From a virus (lineage: Duplodnaviria > Heunggongvirae > Uroviricota > Caudoviricetes), in the IMG/VR virus record IMGVR_UViG_2526164632_000019: DNA of 6,905 bases, one strand, 5' to 3'. Positions 1 to 6,905 of this stretch are shown here, piece after piece; position 1 is the stretch's first letter, and each line of letters starts with the position of its first letter. The notes under the pieces are model-generated. The model was not told the origin of the DNA. It worked only from the letters and a program-made list of their open reading frames with translations, and made no database searches. The position numbers and the translations under genes were made by a program.

Positions 1-113
1 CAAAAACAGTGTTATGGGTGGATTCTCTGTATCCGGCGTTAATTGTTAACTGGTTAACGTCACCTGGAGGCACCAGGCACCACATCACAAAATTCATTGT
101 TGAGGACGCGATA

Positions 114-302
114 ATGGAAACGTTATTACCAAACGTTAATACGTCTGAAGGTTGTTTTGAAATTGGTGTCACTATCAGTAACCCTGTATTTACTGAAGAT
201 GCCATTAACAAGAGAAAACACGAACGGGAGTTATTAAATAAAATATGCATTCTTTCAATGCTGGCCCGTTTACGTCCGATACAAAAAGGATGCTGGCAAT
301 GA
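114..302 (+). CDS. Small hypothetical protein (62 aa) in the prophage early-left region. The reading frame is open back to the window edge, so it may instead be the C-terminus of a longer gene starting upstream of the window.
   Basis: ATG at 114 preceded by GAGGA (102-106) at about 8 nt spacing; stop TGA at 300-302 overlaps the ATG of the next ORF (ATGA overlap). Same strand as the downstream prophage genes. No recognisable motif. Confidence 0.4.
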   Translation: METLLPNVNTSEGCFEIGVTISNPVFTEDAINKRKHERELLNKICILSMLARLRPIQKGCWQ

Positions 303-490
303 ATACAGCATTTGCACTTGTTCTGACAGTTTTTCTTGTTTCCGGAGAGCCAGTTGATATTGCAGTCAGTGTTCACAGGACAATGCAGGAGTGTGTGACT
401 GCAGCAACCGAACAGAAAATTCCCGGTAACTGTTACCCGGTCGATAAAGTTATTCACCAGGATAATAACGAAATCCCGGCAGGTCTTTAA
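299..490 (+). CDS. Small hypothetical protein (63 aa) with a hydrophobic N-terminus (MNTAFALVLTVFLVSG), possibly a signal peptide or membrane anchor, and two Cys residues; common small prophage protein type.
   Basis: ATG at 299 overlaps the stop of the upstream ORF (translational coupling); AGGA at 286-289 upstream. The hydrophobic stretch followed by a polar region with two Cys is read directly from the translation. Start choice between 290 and 299 is uncertain. Confidence 0.5.
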   Translation: MNTAFALVLTVFLVSGEPVDIAVSVHRTMQECVTAATEQKIPGNCYPVDKVIHQDNNEIPAGL

Positions 491-582
491 AACAGTTCCG
501 TAATAAACATCCGGTTTCATTCTTATATGCCAGCAATGGCAGGGATTTGTTCACCATTAAATCTGTAATGAGGTAAGACAAA

Positions 583-3054
583 ATGAGTAAAGTCTTTATT
601 TGCGCCGCCATTCCGGACGAACAGGCAATAAAGGAAGAAGGTGCAGTCGCTGTAGCCACTGCCATTGAAGCCGGTGATGAATGTCGCGCCCGCGCAAAAT
701 TTCACTGGCAATTCCTGGAACATTATCCGGCTGCTCAGGACTGCGCTTATAAATTTATTGTCTGCGAGGATAAACCTGGCATACCCCGCCCTGCCCTCGA
801 TTCATGGGATGCTGAATATATGCAGGAAAACCGCTGGGATGAGGAGTCTGCTTCTTTTGTCCCGGTTGAGACTGAATCCGATCCGATGAACGTCACTTTT
901 GACAAGCTGGCCCCTGAAGTACAGAACGCTGTCATGGTTAAGTTCGACACATGTGAAAACATCACCGTTGATATGGTTATTAGCGCACAGGAATTGTTGC
1001 AGGAAGACATGGCAACATTCGACGGACATATCGTTGAAGCGTTGATGAAAATGCCAGAAGTTAACGCCATGTATCCGGAGCTTAAGTTGCACGCCATTGG
1101 GTGGGTTAAGCATAAATGTATTCCTGGTGCTAAATGGCCCGAAATTCAGGCAGAGATGCGCATCTGGAAAAAACGTCGCGAAGGTGAACGCAAGGAAACC
1201 GGAAAATACACGTCTGTTGTTGATCTCGCCCGCGCCAGAGCCAATCAACAGTACACTGAAAATTCAACAGGAAAAATCAGCCCGGTCATTGCTGCCATTC
1301 ATCGCGAATACAAGCAGACATGGAAAACACTGGATGACGAACTGGCCTACGCTCTCTGGCCTGGTGATGTGGATGCCGGAAACATTGACGGCAGCATCCA
1401 TCGCTGGGCAAAAAATGAAGTTATCGACAACGGCCGCGAAGACTGGAAGCGTATCTCGGCATCAATGCGCAAACAGCCTGATGCCCTTCGCTACGACCGC
1501 CAGACTATTTTTGGCCTTGTCCGTGAACGTCCGATCGACATTCACAAAGATCCCGTAGCACTGAACAAATATATCTGCGAATACCTGACGACAAAGGGCG
1601 TGTTTGAGAATGAAGAAACAGACCTGGGCACTGTTGATGTTCTCCAGTCATCAGAAACACAAACTGATGCAGTGGAAACTGAGGTATCTGATATCCCAAA
1701 AAATGAAACCGCGCCGGAAGCTGAACCATCTGTAGAGCGTGAGGGGCCGTTCTACTTCCTCTTCACCGACAAGGATGGCGAAAAATACGGTCGCGCAAAC
1801 AAACTTTCTGGTCTGGATAAGGCGCTGTCTGCTGGGGCTACTGAAATCACGAAAGAAGAATATTTCGCCCGCAAAAACGGTACATACTCAGGTTCACAAC
1901 AAAATACTGGTGCATCTGACACGACCGCACAACCAGGGCCGGTAAAAGTTACCGCTGACGAAGTAAACAAAATTATGCAGGCAGCCAATATCAGCCAGCC
2001 TGACGCCGATAAGTTACTTGCTGTATCGCGTGGTGAATTTGTTGAGGGGATTAGCGCCCCTAATGATCCGAAATGGGTCAAGGGGATCCAGACTCGCGAT
2101 TCTGTGAACCAGAACCAGCATGAATCGGAACGGAACTACCAAAAAGCGGAACAAAACAGCCCAAATGCGTTACAAAACGAGCCAGAAACGAAACAACCTG
2201 AACCAGTAGTGCAACAGGAACCGGAAAAGATCTGCACCGCCTGCGGTCAGAGCGGTGGCGGCAACTGCCCTGATTGTGGTGCGGTGATGGGTGACGCAAC
2301 ATACCAGGAAATATTCGATGGAGAGAATCAGCCTGAAGTTCAGGAAAATGATCCGGAGGAAATGGAAGGCACTGCGCATCAGCACAAGGAGAACACTGGC
2401 GGCAATCAGCATCATGCCAGCGATAGTGAAACTGGCGAGGCGTCAGATCCCTTAATTAAGGCGAACGGTCATCATAATCTCACATCCACCAGCAGAGCGG
2501 GGATTCATCTGATGATCGACCTTGAAACCATGGGAAAAAATCCCGATGCCCCGATTATCTCAATAGGTGCAATATTTTTCGATCCGCAAACCGGAGATAT
2601 GGGACCGGAATTTAGTAAGACTATCGATCTGGAAACTGCTGGCGGAGTCATTGATCGGGACACCATTAAATGGTGGCTTAAACAATCACGCGAAGCGCAA
2701 TCTGCCATTATGGCCGATGAAATCCCGTTAGATGATGCACTGTTACAATTGCGGGAATTTATCGACGAAAACTCCGGTGAATTTTTTGTTCATGTCTGGG
2801 GAAATGGAGCCAACTTCGACAACACGATTTTGCGCCGTTCATACGAACGGCAGGGGATCCCCTGCCCGTGGCGTTACTACAACGATCGCGATGTACGCAC
2901 AATCGTTGAGCTGGGGAAAGCCATAGACTTCGATGCCAGAACGGCTATTCCATTCGAAGGTGAGCGCCATAATGCACTTGATGACGCCCGTTACCAGGCA
3001 AAATACGTTTCAGCTATCTGGCAAAAACTGATCCCGAGTCAGGCTGATTTTTAA
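583..3054 (+). CDS. Prophage multidomain nuclease (823 aa): uncharacterised N-terminal domain, acidic linkers, CxxC-x8-CxxC zinc knuckle, and C-terminal DEDDh (DnaQ-like) 3'-5' exonuclease domain. Probably the type of protein often annotated as exodeoxyribonuclease VIII-like in lambdoid prophages.
   Basis: Uninterrupted 2472-nt ORF with GAGGT RBS about 8 nt upstream of ATG 583. C-terminal motifs read from the translation: Exo I MIDLETMG (D646, E648; nt 2518-2526), Exo II HVWGNGANFD (D746), Exo III HNALDD (H796, D801; nt 2968-2985). Zinc knuckle CTAC...CPDC at residues 551-566 (nt 2233-2280). It sits immediately upstream of xis-int, where lambda exo and Rac recE lie. Confidence 0.85.
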   Translation: MSKVFICAAIPDEQAIKEEGAVAVATAIEAGDECRARAKFHWQFLEHYPAAQDCAYKFIVCEDKPGIPRPALDSWDAEYMQENRWDEESASFVPVETESDPMNVTFDKLAPEVQNAVMVKFDTCENITVDMVISAQELLQEDMATFDGHIVEALMKMPEVNAMYPELKLHAIGWVKHKCIPGAKWPEIQAEMRIWKKRREGERKETGKYTSVVDLARARANQQYTENSTGKISPVIAAIHREYKQTWKTLDDELAYALWPGDVDAGNIDGSIHRWAKNEVIDNGREDWKRISASMRKQPDALRYDRQTIFGLVRERPIDIHKDPVALNKYICEYLTTKGVFENEETDLGTVDVLQSSETQTDAVETEVSDIPKNETAPEAEPSVEREGPFYFLFTDKDGEKYGRANKLSGLDKALSAGATEITKEEYFARKNGTYSGSQQNTGASDTTAQPGPVKVTADEVNKIMQAANISQPDADKLLAVSRGEFVEGISAPNDPKWVKGIQTRDSVNQNQHESERNYQKAEQNSPNALQNEPETKQPEPVVQQEPEKICTACGQSGGGNCPDCGAVMGDATYQEIFDGENQPEVQENDPEEMEGTAHQHKENTGGNQHHASDSETGEASDPLIKANGHHNLTSTSRAGIHLMIDLETMGKNPDAPIISIGAIFFDPQTGDMGPEFSKTIDLETAGGVIDRDTIKWWLKQSREAQSAIMADEIPLDDALLQLREFIDENSGEFFVHVWGNGANFDNTILRRSYERQGIPCPWRYYNDRDVRTIVELGKAIDFDARTAIPFEGERHNALDDARYQAKYVSAIWQKLIPSQADF

Positions 3055-3069
3055 TGTTCAACCCTAATT

Positions 3070-3095
3070 GCCGCTAACCGTATATAGTTAGCGGC
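3070..3095. repeat. Perfect 9-bp inverted repeat (GCCGCTAAC / GTTAGCGGC) with an 8-nt AT-rich spacer, in the gap between the nuclease gene and the xis-like gene.
   Basis: Read directly: 3070-3078 gccgctaac, spacer cgtatata, 3087-3095 gttagcggc. No downstream T-tract, so it does not look like an intrinsic terminator; more likely a protein-binding palindrome or an RNA hairpin. Confidence 0.5.
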
Positions 3096-3112
3096 GGTTA
3101 TGAGATATAGCT

Positions 3113-3316
3113 ATGAGCAGCTTATTTTTAACCGAAGATGAATTGCTAATATTAACGGGCTGCAAATATGCAAGCCACCAGCGAAAATGGTTAATGGAAA
3201 ACGGGCTTCCGTTCTATACCAATCGTAGTGGCAAACCGATTGTCAGCCGGGAGCTATTTACCTGCAATAAAACTTTACCACCACGCGAGGTAGAGCCGAA
3301 TTTTGGTGCGATCTGA
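3113..3316 (+). CDS. Small excisionase-like / DUF4224-type protein (67 aa) typically found immediately upstream of lambdoid integrases.
   Basis: The motif LTEDELLILTGCKYASHQRKWLMENGLPFYTNRSGKPIV matches my memory of the DUF4224 pattern. Its TGA stop overlaps the integrase ATG (TGATG at 3314-3318), indicating translational coupling. Confidence 0.7.
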   Translation: MSSLFLTEDELLILTGCKYASHQRKWLMENGLPFYTNRSGKPIVSRELFTCNKTLPPREVEPNFGAI

Positions 3317-4340
3317 TGGGAAGACGAAGGAAAAATCCTGAACACGAAAAATTACCTCCAAATGTATACCCAAATAAATATAGTTATGTATGGAAACCAA
3401 CATCCAGAGAATCTGTAACACTAACCGCCATCAAGGATGGTTTAGCTGCTTTATGGAAAAAGTATGAGGAAACTGTAAATAATCGCGATCGTGCAATGAC
3501 ATTCGGTCGCTTGTGGGAAAAATTCCTCGCCAGCGCCTATTACAGTGACCTCAGTCCAAGAACACAAAAAGATTATCTGCAACATCAAAAAAAGTTGCTT
3601 GCCGTATTCGGTAAGGTGCCGGCAGATTCCATAAAACCAGAACACATCCGTCGATACATGGACAAGAGAGGGGAGCAGAGTAAAACGCAAGCCAACCATG
3701 AAAAAAGCAGTATGTCCCGCGTTTACAGTTGGGGGTATGAGCGAGGGTACGTGAAGGGTAACCCATGTGCAGGTGTAAGTAAATTCAAGGCCAAAAACCG
3801 CGAACGATATGTAACCGACAAAGAATACCAGGCAGTATTAAGCGTTGCACCTCTTCCTGTTTTTATCGCAATGGAAATTGCCTATCTGTGTGCAGCGAGG
3901 GTTTCCGATGTGTTATCGCTGAAATGGGAGCAGATTGGAAACGACGGGATCTTTATCCAGCAAGGGAAAACAGGAAAAAACAGATAAAAGCATGGAGTCC
4001 ACGATTACAGGCGGCGATCGAAAAAGCAAAACAGTTACCAACATCCGCCTATGTAATCAGCAATCAATACGGCAACCGATATATGTACAAAGGCTTTAAC
4101 GAAATGTGGGTAGAAGCAAGAAATCGCGCAGGCAAAATTTCAGGTATTTTAACCGACTTCACCTTTCATGATCTGAAGGCGAAAGGAATTTCAGACTATG
4201 AAGGAAGCAGTCGGGATAAGCAACTTTTCTCTGGTCACAAAACCGAGGGGCAAGTGCTAATCTATGACAGGAAGGTTAAAGTTTCACCGACACTTGATGT
4301 CCCGTTACCTGAAAATATTCCAAGAAAATATTCCAAGTAA
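3316..4340 (+). pseudogene. int: Lambda-type tyrosine integrase with N-terminal arm-binding domain, disrupted by a -1 frameshift in an A6 run (3975-3980).
   Basis: Frame A (3316-3987) ends ...IFIQQGKTGKNR*; frame B continues ...KKQIKAWSPRLQAAIEK... to the stop at 4340. Adding one A to the A6 run would join them as ...QGKTGKKQIKAWSP.... The C-terminal box FHDLKAKG...GHKTEGQVLIYDRK carries the catalytic His and Tyr (Y at 4263-4265). The gene lies next to the tRNA-Ser 3' end. Confidence 0.85.
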
Positions 4341-4347
4341 TTCCAAG
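4311..4347. repeat. Tandem direct repeats (AAAATATTCCAAG twice, then TAATTCCAAG) overlapping the integrase 3' end; candidate integrase arm-type binding sites.
   Basis: ATTCCAAG occurs at 4317-4324, 4330-4337 and 4340-4347, about 45-80 bp from the tRNA-Ser 3' end (4393). The position is analogous to the lambda P' arm sites, which overlap the int C-terminus. Confidence 0.45.
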
Positions 4348-4392
4348 TGTGATTTTTGTCACTGACTTAATGATGTATAAGTGATTGAATTT

Positions 4393-4482
4393 TGGCGGAG
4401 AGAGGGGGATTTGAACCCCCGGTGGAGTTGCCCCCACTCCGGTTTTCGAGACCGGTCCGTTCAGCCGCTCCGGCATCTCTCC
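4393..4482 (-). tRNA. serU: tRNA-Ser, anticodon CGA, 90 nt with long variable arm; integration target of the adjacent prophage.
   Basis: Reverse complement reads GGAGAGATGCCGGAGCGGCTGAACGGACCGGTCTCGAAAACCGGAGTGGGGGCAACTCCACCGGGGGTTCAAATCCCCCTCTCTCCGCCA. Acceptor stem GGAGAGA/TCTCTCC, anticodon loop CUCGAAA, 3' CCA encoded. Matches my recollection of E. coli serU and its position next to mtfA. Confidence 0.95.
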
Positions 4483-4575
4483 GTTCAGATGGTTGCCATG
4501 ATGCCAGGAAATTTGGCATTTTAACAGTCCCTGTCCGTGCAATTTTGTTCAAGTGACGAGTTTGCGAGCAAAACG

Positions 4576-5373
4576 ATGATTAAGTGGCCCTGGAAAGTAC
4601 AAGAATCAGCACATCAAACTGCCCTTCCCTGGCAGGAAGCACTATCGATCCCCCTTTTAACGTGTCTGACGGAACAGGAACAAAGCAAATTAGTCACTCT
4701 TGCCGAACGTTTTTTACAGCAAAAGCGGCTTGTTCCTTTACAGGGCTTTGAACTGGATTCATTAAGAAGCTGCCGGATAGCACTTCTATTTTGCCTACCC
4801 GTTCTGGAGTTAGGACTGGAATGGCTGGATGGTTTTCATGAAGTCTTAATTTATCCTGCGCCATTTGTGGTCGATGATGAATGGGAAGACGATATCGGTC
4901 TGGTGCATAACCAACGTATTGTTCAGTCAGGTCAGAGCTGGCAGCAAGGGCCTATCGTTTTGAACTGGTTGGATATACAAGATTCTTTTGATGCTTCTGG
5001 TTTTAACCTGATTATTCATGAAGTCGCTCATAAGCTGGACACCCGTAACGGCGATCGCGCCAGCGGAGTTCCCTTTATTCCGTTGCGTGAGGTTGCTGGC
5101 TGGGAACACGATCTTCATGCTGCAATGAACAACATTCAGGAAGAAATCGAATTGGTTGGCGAGAATGCGGCGAGCATTGATGCTTATGCTGCCAGTGATC
5201 CTGCTGAATGTTTTGCCGTACTTTCTGAATATTTCTTTAGCGCCCCAGAACTTTTTGCTCCTCGTTTCCCTTCATTGTGGCAACGTTTCTGCCAATTTTA
5301 TCAACAAGATCCTTTGCAGAGACTGCATCGCACTAATGATACAGACTCGTTTTCGGCGACGAATGTTCATTAA
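4576..5373 (+). CDS. mtfA: MtfA (YeeI), Mlc titration factor A, a zinc-dependent peptidase-like protein (265 aa).
   Basis: Translation begins [14 protein letters not shown]... and contains the HEXXH motif (HEVAHKLD). Conserved position between serU and asnT as in E. coli K-12. The ORF track starts at an upstream GTG (4537); the ATG at 4576 gives the 265-aa product. Confidence 0.93.
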
Positions 5374-5427
5374 TTAACAACTTTGCAGATTAATTAACCA
5401 ATTGAAATGACTTATGAAATTTAGTGT

Positions 5428-5456
5428 TGACAGACAAGGTACCGCTAAGTAATATG
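5428..5456 (+). promoter_or_regulatory. Near-consensus sigma-70 promoter for asnT (-35 TTGACA, 17-bp spacer, -10 TAATAT, GC-rich discriminator).
   Basis: TTGACA at 5428-5433, TAATAT at 5451-5456, followed by GCGCCCC; the mature tRNA begins at 5474. Typical architecture of a stringently controlled tRNA promoter. Confidence 0.6.
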
Positions 5457-5473
5457 CGCCCCGTTCACACGAT

Positions 5474-5549
5474 TCCTCTGTAGTTCAGTCGGTAGAACGG
5501 CGGACTGTTAATCCGTATGTCACTGGTTCGAGTCCAGTCAGAGGAGCCA
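5474..5549 (+). tRNA. asnT: tRNA-Asn, anticodon GUU, 76 nt.
   Basis: TCCTCTGTAGTTCAGTCGGTAGAACGGCGGACTGTTAATCCGTATGTCACTGGTTCGAGTCCAGTCAGAGGAGCCA. Acceptor stem TCCTCTG/CAGAGGA, anticodon loop CUGUUAA, encoded CCA. Confidence 0.97.
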
Positions 5550-5638
5550 AATTCTAAAAATTCGCTTTTTTAGCGCAATGTCACTGACCTTAGTTGAACA
5601 TTGTTTTTTAACGGATAGCGGGTTTTTAACATCTTAAG

Positions 5639-5669
5639 CGCCCTCGACCTTTATGGTTGAGGGCGTTTT
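5639..5669 (+). terminator. Probable intrinsic terminator downstream of asnT.
   Basis: GC-rich stem CGCCCTCGA (5639-5647) pairing with TTGAGGGCG (5657-5665, one G-U pair), a short loop, then TTTT (5666-5669). Confidence 0.5.
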
Positions 5670-5862
5670 GCTATGAACGCCATCACCATTTTCCCCTCGA
5701 TTATAAAACTTGAGTTATTCAGTAGTCTCCCCTCTTGCAACTCACACCCAAAACTGCCTAACGAAAAGTTATTAATTTTCAATCATATTGCTATCAGGAT
5801 TTACATTTTTTCGCTGTGCTAGAAAGGGCGCATTTATGTTAGCTCGTTCAGGGAAGGTAAGC

Positions 5863-6905
<1,043 letters not shown>

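Follow-up and report, generated by a model that had tools for sequence, protein, structure and literature searches.

Probable int-proximal end of a lambda-like prophage in Escherichia coli serU, with a hybrid tRNA gene and a frameshifted integrase gene

We analysed a 6,905-nucleotide stretch of DNA, hereafter the window, and found that its positions 1–4454 very probably represent the int-proximal end of a lambda-like prophage of the Sp14/CP-933U type, which lies in serU between yodB and mtfA. The gene content, a hybrid tRNA gene, an empty site in K-12, a far-end repeat with a full prophage in the relatives, and a frameshift in the integrase gene were all observed directly. Apart from its broken int, the window is one more, ordinary copy of an already known serU prophage, and its importance lies mainly in annotation.

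[quoted passage not shown] Positions 1–4392 hold dicB, a DUF1482 gene, an exonuclease gene, an excisionase gene and an integrase gene, all on the plus strand and pointing at serU. Position 1 falls within phage DNA and the element continues past the window start: bases 1–113 (plus strand), the phage DNA 5′ of dicB that makes up the DicF-dicB spacer, are 99.9% identical to positions 20001–20113 of the relative L001. Rfam found no match to the DicF sRNA in the window; in the relative, DicF sits 62–113 nt upstream of the position equivalent to the window start. The cell-division inhibitor gene dicB (114–302, plus strand), a Qin-type early-left gene also annotated in the relatives, matched Pfam PF05358 (DicB) over its full length (E=1.7e-37). 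After it come a gene for a YdfD-like DUF1482 small protein (299–490, plus strand; PF07358, E=3.7e-25; PHROG 1092), a gene for an 823-aa exonuclease of the YdfE type (583–3054, plus strand; PF16473, Rv2179c-like, E=1.5e-66; PHROG 2082 exonuclease, full length) and xis (3113–3316, plus strand), encoding a 67-aa DUF4224 excisionase (PF13986, E=1.7e-15; PHROG 1266 ‘excisionase’, E=4e-21). All four are intact. The excisionase gene sits directly 5′ of int, its stop codon overlapping the int start, and the early-left genes run in lambda order toward att. The ORFs, Pfam and PHROG all agree with the original prediction of a prophage inserted at the 3′ end of serU and showing int, xis and a nuclease in lambdoid order on one strand toward the tRNA.

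Integrative islands and phage satellites also use tRNA genes as sites, and asnT, about 1 kb away, holds an integrase-bearing island in the related genomes L011, L016, L019 and L020. That the window shows the int-xis module of such a non-phage element using serU is nevertheless very improbable: dicB, DUF1482 and the gene for the YdfE-type exonuclease belong to the lambdoid early-left set, every relative examined continues from them to dicA/dicC, replication, Q, lysis, terminase, head and tail, and isolated phage records matching window 1–3062 include mEp460_ev081, HannyBb and Tritos. Defence-system models run against the window’s proteins gave a sole match, a weak generic DEDDh hit on the exonuclease; RmrT/RmrA-like and SMEK defence matches belong to a relative’s prophage, outside the window.

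We next turn to the evidence for insertion. In K-12 MG1655 the order is yodB, serU, mtfA, asnT, yeeJ, with no phage genes and an empty site, in agreement with the original prediction. The closest complete genomes are FDAARGOS_1059 (NZ_CP066032.1) and O111:H2 12A (NZ_CP077479.1), both 99.9% identical to window 1–6620. In these two genomes a displaced K-12-type 62-bp copy of serU adjoins yodB, 46.8–58.4 kb off, and the two serU copies enclose a full lambdoid prophage, damaged by IS elements, that carries nle effector genes. Thus both features proposed earlier as a check, a partial serU repeat and further phage genes, are present there. Far-end partial copies of 62/61 bp beside yodB were found in FDAARGOS_1059, O111:H2 12A and O157:H7 F6294, whose prophages measure 58,438 bp, 46,781 bp and 42,715 bp, respectively. 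The lambdoid modules in the relatives comprise dicA/dicC immunity, Q, lysis, terminase, head, tail and nle or tccP/espJ cargo. Could the segment instead be ancestral in E. coli, with a loss in K-12? The sole support for this reading is that about 21% of genomes have it. Yet the yodB-serU spacer of K-12 is clean, the lysogens keep the same spacer intact past the far-end partial serU, and the flanking direct repeats are of host-type and phage-type variants. We consider ancestral descent extremely unlikely and rejected it as refuted by the att duplication, which together with the empty K-12 site shows insertion.

The prophages of FDAARGOS_1059 and O111:H2 12A share one annotated accession each for the exonuclease and xis, and they have the same phage-type 3′ part of serU as the window. 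They differ in that their int has A7 and an unbroken 341-aa ORF, whereas the window has A6, and in that they span 58.4 and 46.8 kb, whereas the window shows only the int end of its own prophage. Their yeeJ also lacks the IS100 cut; beside the window’s serU region, yeeJ is frameshifted and interrupted by IS100. No exact match to this yeeJ::IS100 junction was found in the GTDB species representatives, and matches to complete RefSeq E. coli genomes extend no further than 6620 in the window.

Judging from these relatives, the element in the source genome probably measures about 40–60 kb. If a large prophage is indeed present, a second copy of TGGCGGAGAGAGGGGGATTTGAACCCCCGGTAGAGTTGCCCCTACTCCGGTTTTCGAGACC is expected to adjoin yodB tens of kb away. 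The original prediction had called the element a remnant, and a short remnant, of which only the dicB-to-int early-left end survives with the rest deleted, deserves consideration: the window alone is unable to show otherwise, int is already a pseudogene, and yeeJ, frameshifted and cut by IS100, suggests a strain that is accumulating lesions. Deletion derivatives in O111:H8 retain only part of int beside the exonuclease gene, and the O111:H2 12A prophage is already about 11.7 kb shorter than that of FDAARGOS_1059, having lost J and tail-fibre genes among others. We nonetheless judge a remnant unlikely. Both complete genomes with 99.9% identity across 6.6 kb hold prophages of 46.8 and 58.4 kb; dicB, DUF1482, the exonuclease gene and xis are undamaged, with a protein identical to the exonuclease indexed in 464 blocks of an assembly collection; and Logan contigs with the same int allele stop at 4422, where a k=31 graph would be expected to branch if the 3′ part of serU occurred twice in those genomes. 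The int frameshift is the only lesion visible in the prophage part of the window; the term remnant is not supported, and a large prophage remains the preferred reading.

The boundary of the element does not coincide with the end of the tRNA gene at 4392/4393, as had been assumed. Alignment with K-12 attB and with the relative’s far-end copy delimited a 62-bp att repeat at 4393–4454, the phage-supplied 3′ part of serU. The last phage-specific base is 4435 and attP/attB identity ends at 4454, which leaves a crossover interval, ACTCCGGTTTTCGAGACCG, at 4436–4454, that includes the anticodon loop together with most of the stem. By this sequence comparison the phage/host junction is placed within serU at 4436–4454, and the phage-derived 3′ part of the tRNA amounts to 43–62 nt. 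serU (4393–4482, minus strand) is an intact tRNA-Ser(CGA) gene by ARAGORN, Rfam and folding, and a hybrid, with a host 5′ part and a phage 3′ part. Within the variable-arm stem, G4424 and C4435, both of phage type, form a base pair, a compensatory change. The host and phage versions of serU fold to one and the same cloverleaf, in which positions 48 and 59 pair. The phage-type G..C variant was present in the int-side serU of 14/14 lysogen loci, while the host-type A..T variant was confined to K-12 and the displaced copy at the far end. The G..C variable-arm allele is a simple marker of lysogeny, with a prophage boundary inside a tRNA gene.

Between the int stop codon and the tRNA 3′ end lie 52 bp. 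This P′-arm spacer (4341–4392), at 28.8% GC, retains partial similarity (ATAAGTsATTGA) to the K-12 host sequence that follows serU. At its edge, three direct copies of ATTCCAAG begin at 4317, 4330 and 4340 (4317–4347, plus strand) and overlap the 3′ end of int. Three matches compare with 0.34 expected, and 0/200 shuffles reached three. In the relative, only two ATTCCAAG matches occur in 41 kb, both about 115 bp or less from the far att core. As putative arm-type sites, the repeats would bind Int on the P′ arm. The copy number of the 13-bp repeat unit differs between genomes.

These features suggest how the prophage would have entered serU. The phage attP would hold 62 bp of serU sequence, reaching from the anticodon stem as far as the terminal 3′ CCA, and a lambda-type Int with an N-terminal arm-binding domain would probably contact the ATTCCAAG repeats. 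Int would swap strands in or beside the anticodon loop; we infer that the exchange takes place inside its 7 nt. Integration would then rebuild the tRNA gene with the phage 3′ part and displace the original 3′ part to the far end of the prophage, and the DUF4224 Xis would steer excision. A natural attP-like junction between tandem prophages is found in CP051001.1.

The integrase gene itself is a pseudogene in the window. int (3316–4340, plus strand), of the lambda tyrosine type, is split into two ORFs, 3316–3987 (223 aa) and 3888–4340, a defect overlooked in the original prediction together with the junction inside serU. In the relatives, the uninterrupted 341-aa Int aligns over aa 1–313 with lambda Int (residues 1–338; E=1.4e-12), the N-terminal arm-binding domain included. 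The lesion is a −1 frameshift at 3975–3980 (plus strand), where all intact relatives have A7 and the window has A6; the shifted frame ends ...GKTGKNR at a stop codon at 3985–3987. A7 was found in 15 related loci checked, and A6 only in the window and in three Logan contigs. Because the change is a single base within an A7 run that is conserved in all 15 of those loci, one could suspect a homopolymer error of sequencing or assembly, with Int intact and the prophage excisable. Homopolymer indels are often sequencing errors, and the frameshift therefore rests on the agreement of the three short public contigs. These contigs (1.4 kb) were the only ones retrieved when the truncated 223-aa Int was sought as an exact match; they agree with window 3020–4422 at 100% identity, A6 included, and derive from the separate public read sets ERR181299, SRR096435 and SRR096453, each being found in a second sample too. 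In view of this identity an error is very unlikely; the frameshift is taken as real, a one-base deletion with the identical allele in three independent read-set assemblies.

The deletion in the A7 run would end Int after residue 223, and the truncated protein would be devoid of the H-x-x-K, His and Tyr catalytic residues. This predicts that the window’s copy of the prophage has lost excision, since without the catalytic residues it would be unable to excise with its own enzyme. With its integrase broken, the prophage and any effector cargo are probably fixed in the chromosome. We first read the PGAP ‘frameshifted’ flags on the relatives’ int as a shared lesion, but rejected this reading, because the ORF is uninterrupted there. 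It is colinear with an annotated 341-aa integrase, and many assemblies give its product as 341 aa. Most likely the flag arises from comparison to a 360-aa form that bears one extra 13-bp unit.

Through the change in copy number of this 13-bp repeat, which probably also provides arm-type binding sites, the C-terminal tail of Int is altered (341 vs 360 aa). In nearly all tyrosine recombinases an arginine occupies the second catalytic position. In contrast, Int of the serU-phage clade has an invariant lysine at the second catalytic arginine position (lambda R311), and this Lys-bearing Int is evidently active in nature. Tentatively, and with the odds well against it, the Lys-for-Arg exchange and the repeat-altered tail, if both are functional, might constitute an uncharacterised variant of lambda-type integration, both catalytic and regulatory. 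Such a variant, if true, would reside in a very common E. coli prophage.

Compared with the lambda int-xis-attP region, the window shows the same arrangement of exo, xis, int and att, all transcribed toward att, and a homologous Int that includes the arm-binding N-terminus (MGRRR...LPPN.Y). The putative arm sites number three on the int side in the window and two on the other arm in the relative, the same 3+2 count as in lambda. The target, in contrast, is a tRNA gene, where lambda uses the gal-bio attB, and the att identity block spans 62 bp instead of 15 bp. Besides the lysine at the R311 position, further differences are a DUF4224 Xis and a nuclease other than lambda Exo; bet and gam were not found. 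Qin of K-12 (dicA-dicC-ydfABC-dicF-dicB-ydfD-ydfE) is of the same early-left type: the window has dicB, DUF1482/YdfD and a YdfE_N/YdfE_C exonuclease, and its relatives have DicF, dicA and dicC upstream. Qin occupies another chromosomal site, and its ydfE is truncated.

The closest counterparts are Sp14 (Sakai) and CP-933U (EDL933) of O157:H7, lambdoid prophages between yodB and serU. They share the gene order dicB, DUF1482, exonuclease, DUF4224 xis, int, serU. O157:H7 genomes show about 95% identity in the int region, and a displaced host-type serU copy of 61 bp lies at the far end, as in the relatives. They differ in their far-end cargo (tccP and espJ, versus nleB2/nleC/nleH/nleF in the window’s closest relatives), in a LexA-type cI immunity instead of dicA/dicC, and in an int with A7, without the A6 frameshift of the window. 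We tied Sp14/CP-933U to serU through a prophage with tccP and espJ cargo at serU of an O157:H7 genome and through the reported location of tccP on Sp14/CP-933U (PMC2884950). Sp14 is defective in several functions and still circularises after mitomycin C (PMC2669165). serU is also a listed prophage site in STEC O145:H28 (PMC7067040).

Lambdoid prophages are known to integrate often at serU, and in EPEC and EHEC they carry genes for type III effectors. The same int occurs in 1,155/5,426 complete E. coli genomes (~21%). The exact phage-type 62-mer is found in 1,185 records, and its copies exceed the genomes holding it by 1,577.

The 823-aa exonuclease is a practical annotation point. Many records label the protein ‘exodeoxyribonuclease VIII’, the name of RecE of Rac, and its middle is indeed RecE-like: residues 262–625, a Cys-rich segment included, show 38% identity to K-12 RecE, confined to RecE aa 278–591. 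RecE-type identity was rejected, as there is no RecE similarity past residue 591 and the C-terminus is Rv2179c-like (DEDDh) with the E value of 1.5e-66 given above. A predicted DEDDh 3′-5′ exonuclease domain (aa 642–813, Pfam Rv2179c-like) thus replaces the RecE nuclease domain as the catalytic C-terminal domain, and the label is misleading. The same fusion of a DEDDh domain to a RecE-like middle region led us to reject a lambda Exo-type identity. The protein matches the Pfam families YdfE_N/YdfE_C, and that of FDAARGOS_1059 is identical to it. No recT-like ORF adjoins the exonuclease gene in the window, where xis follows after 58 bp and DUF1482 lies upstream; in the Rac prophage, recT comes after recE.

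Finally, we measured base composition, as the segment had been described as AT-rich. It is not: GC amounts to 46.0% over 1–4392 vs 46.3% in the host flank (4483–6620), and we rejected an ‘AT-rich island’ as a criterion of foreign origin. The estimate by eye of 35–42% GC for the first 500 bp and int, below mtfA, proved roughly right at its upper edge (41.8% in bases 1–500 and 42.9% in int vs 45.7% in mtfA), with a contrast that is small. The exonuclease gene, more than half of the segment, has 49.1% GC, and low GC is limited to dicB (37.0%), the first 500 bp, int and the 52-bp P′ spacer.

Five plus-strand phage genes lie beside serU in the window, in the strand and order originally described: dicB (114-302; Pfam DicB, E=1.7e-37), a DUF1482 gene (299-490), the gene of an 823-aa exonuclease (583-3054), that of a 67-aa DUF4224 protein placed by PHROGs in the excisionase class (3113-3316) and the integrase gene int (3316-4340). 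ARAGORN and Rfam give two tRNA genes in the window, namely tRNA-Ser(CGA), serU, on the minus strand (4393-4482) and tRNA-Asn(GUU), asnT, on the plus strand (5474-5549). The int stop codon is 52 bp from the tRNA-Ser 3' end (4393), and to the right of tRNA-Ser come mtfA, asnT and the first part of yeeJ. In FDAARGOS_1059, one of the two closest complete genomes, a DicF sRNA gene (Rfam RF00039, 76.7 bits; locus L001, 19888-19939) sits directly 5' of dicB, 62-113 nt upstream of the window start; the window opens just past DicF.

K-12 MG1655 has the order yodB-serU-mtfA-asnT-yeeJ with phage genes absent and a yodB-serU spacer of 570 bp. FDAARGOS_1059 and O111:H2 12A match window 1-6620 at 99.9% identity, and both have yodB tens of kb off, with the K-12 spacer intact next to it. 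After that spacer come a 62-bp partial serU 3' part (TGGCGG...GAGACCG) and then phage DNA; an O157:H7 genome has a like arrangement, with a displaced serU copy of 61 bp. The segment is thus inserted, not ancestral, and the empty K-12 site together with the displaced serU copy in relatives bears out the core of the original prediction, phage DNA integrated at serU.

The boundary itself had been placed at the serU 3' end, a position that the two serU copies do not support. They differ at two positions, 4424 and 4435. These are G and C in the int-side copy (4393-4454), with which the functional tRNA is complete, and A and T in K-12 and in the displaced copy. In each of the 14 lysogen loci fetched the int-side copy is the G..C version, and the A..T version is restricted, among the loci compared, to K-12 and the displaced copy. 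This distribution shows the phage to be the supplier of the serU 3' part and puts the prophage/host junction inside the gene; the crossover must have taken place within the 19 bp ACTCCGGTTTTCGAGACCG (4436-4454), which span the loop of the anticodon arm and most of that arm's stem. For tRNA-targeting integrases of the lambda family, strand exchange in a stem-flanked 7-nt anticodon loop is established, and by analogy we infer that exchange here would occur in the 7-nt anticodon loop, with symmetric stem on both sides. Since positions 4424 and 4435 form a base pair in the long variable arm's stem, and both versions fold into the same cloverleaf, the G..C for A..T change is compensatory and the hybrid tRNA-Ser should be functional.

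In CP051001.1 (L017 13700-13960), the int-side serU core is followed directly by a phage P arm in place of the remaining serU, with NleG genes and tail genes downstream, an arrangement of tandem serU prophages with a natural attP-like junction between them. In FDAARGOS_1059, ISCro1 (IS66 family; L002 35037-37720), bordered by the 8-bp duplication CTGAATGT, lies in the yodB-serU spacer just beyond the far att site.

Over residues 1-313 the uninterrupted 341-aa Int of relatives can be aligned with lambda Int (E=1.4e-12), a match that takes in the N-terminal arm-binding segment (MGRRR..LPPN.Y) as well as Arg-I, the beta-hairpin Lys, His-II, His-III and the tyrosine. Overlapping the int end are three direct copies of ATTCCAAG (4317-4347), where 0.34 would be expected by chance and three were reached in 0 of 200 shuffles; a relative has just two copies in 41 kb, both within about 115 bp of the far-end core on the phage side. 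This three-plus-two layout is like that of the lambda arm-type sites, and the copies are putative arm sites.

The int gene expected beside serU is present, but a split overlooked in the first reading divides it into two ORFs (3316-3987 and 3888-4340). By alignment, one A is missing from a run that is A7 in FDAARGOS_1059, in O103:H2 12009 and in ON470583, whose integrase is annotated as intact; A7 is kept in 15 of 15 related loci checked. The frameshifted Int stops at ...GKTGKNR, 223 residues long, before the H-x-x-K motif, the second His and the nucleophilic Tyr are reached. That the frameshift is an assembly error is unlikely, because the A6 run recurs in three contigs from separate public read sets (ERR181299, SRR096435 and SRR096453), 100% identical to window 3020-4422. 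The window int is a pseudogene.

Two units of GAAAATATTCCAA followed by GTAATTCCAAG lie at the int 3' end in the window (4311-4347) and most relatives; three units in the related loci L015 (13730-13779) and L019 shift the frame, giving an Int of 360 aa vs 341 aa. A polymorphic 13-bp repeat that alters the Int C-terminus is a mildly unusual feature of this integrase clade. PGAP "frameshifted" notes on the relatives' int do not reflect the window's lesion, the ORF being open there, and most likely stem from comparison with the 360-aa form and its extra 13-bp unit.

Codons for HDLK lie at 4166-4177, in the second int ORF. H-D-x-K, in which Lys takes the place of the second catalytic Arg (lambda R311), occurs in 17 of 17 diverse clade members aligned (55-100% identity; Escherichia, Salmonella, Klebsiella, Dickeya, Sodalis, Hamiltonella, Gilliamella). 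Tyrosine recombinases generally, like lambda, have Arg at this position, reported at 99.1% (PMC2943603), whereas Lys is invariant in this clade, its other mildly unusual feature; such a replacement is rare yet documented (PMC2943603; PMC12884075).

The predicted nuclease gene is likewise there, its product now corrected to a DEDDh enzyme: the last 180 residues match the Rv2179c-like family of DEDDh 3'-5' exonucleases (E=1.5e-66), and their sequence shows the D-x-E, D and H-x4-D motifs. Residues 262-625 share 38% identity with K-12 RecE 278-591, which lies upstream of RecE's nuclease-activity region, and no recT stands beside the gene among the window ORFs. The position of the RecE likeness, the DEDDh C-terminus and the absence of recT rule out a true RecE. 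The 823-aa protein is a fusion of a RecE-like middle and a predicted DEDDh exonuclease domain, and its usual "exodeoxyribonuclease VIII" annotation in EHEC/EPEC prophages is misleading. It fills the site of the lambda recombination genes, yet differs from lambda Exo. Pfam YdfE_N and YdfE_C cover the remainder, tying the early-left region to the Qin type.

The serU repeats of FDAARGOS_1059 are 58,438 bp apart. Between them lie dicA/dicC, DicF, replication genes, hokD, rusA, the Q-region, three tRNAs, lysis, terminase, portal, head and tail genes, three IS66-family insertions breaking J and tail-fibre genes, nleB2, nleC and nleH (all pseudogenes) and intact nleF. The O111:H2 12A element (46,781 bp) has lost the J-to-tail-fibre segment, and that of O157:H7 F6294 (42,715 bp) ends with tccP and espJ. 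The relatives' prophages are large and defective, not small remnants, which leaves the term "remnant" unproven for the window. The source strain may still hold a short remnant, because deletion derivatives exist elsewhere, as in O111:H8, where a partly retained int adjoins the exonuclease gene; the 46,781 and 58,438 bp prophages of the two 99.9%-identical genomes speak against it.

Outside the window, two stretches of the FDAARGOS_1059 prophage (L001 10584-12318 and 15058-15957) contain candidate defence cargo: a pair that fits the PADLOC models RmrA (E=6e-105) and RmrT (E=5e-25), a protein with a SMEK-N domain that hits the PADLOC model Aga_REase-PNTD1-PNTD2, and a Type II-like DNA methyltransferase.

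Of 5,426 complete E. coli genomes, 1,155 match the int region, almost always with one copy on the chromosome, and at least 80% of the whole window is common to 744 genomes. The exact phage-type 62-mer is found in 1,185 records, its copies exceeding the genomes that hold it by 1,577. Sp14/CP-933U carries tccP (PMC2884950), which is located in the serU prophage of O157:H7. Sp14 is described as a lambdoid prophage that encodes a seemingly intact integrase and an "Exo VIII-type" nuclease, has several defects in morphogenesis and forms circles upon mitomycin C treatment (PMC2669165). Window 1-4454 is the integrase end of a kind of E. coli prophage that is very common and well documented.

By-eye GC estimates were roughly right (bases 1-500, 41.8%; int, 42.9%; mtfA, 45.7%) but too weak a basis for calling the element AT-rich: segment 1-4392 has 46.0% GC and the host flank (4483-6620) 46.3%. 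Over half of that segment is the exonuclease gene, at 49.1%. The element has no composition distinct from its neighbours.

In the host flank, yeeJ (inverse autotransporter adhesin; 5788-6905) is frameshifted, with ORFs at 5788-6138 and 6050-6679, and is interrupted at 6620/6621 by the left end of IS100 (IS21 family), a junction absent from complete RefSeq E. coli genomes and GTDB species representatives. asnT is unoccupied in the window (5474-5862), with yeeJ directly next. Several genomes with the identical exonuclease have a 420-aa integrase after asnT, succeeded by chorismate-binding, MFS and ABC-transporter genes in three related loci (L011, L016, L020) and by Rhs/PAAR toxin genes in L019.
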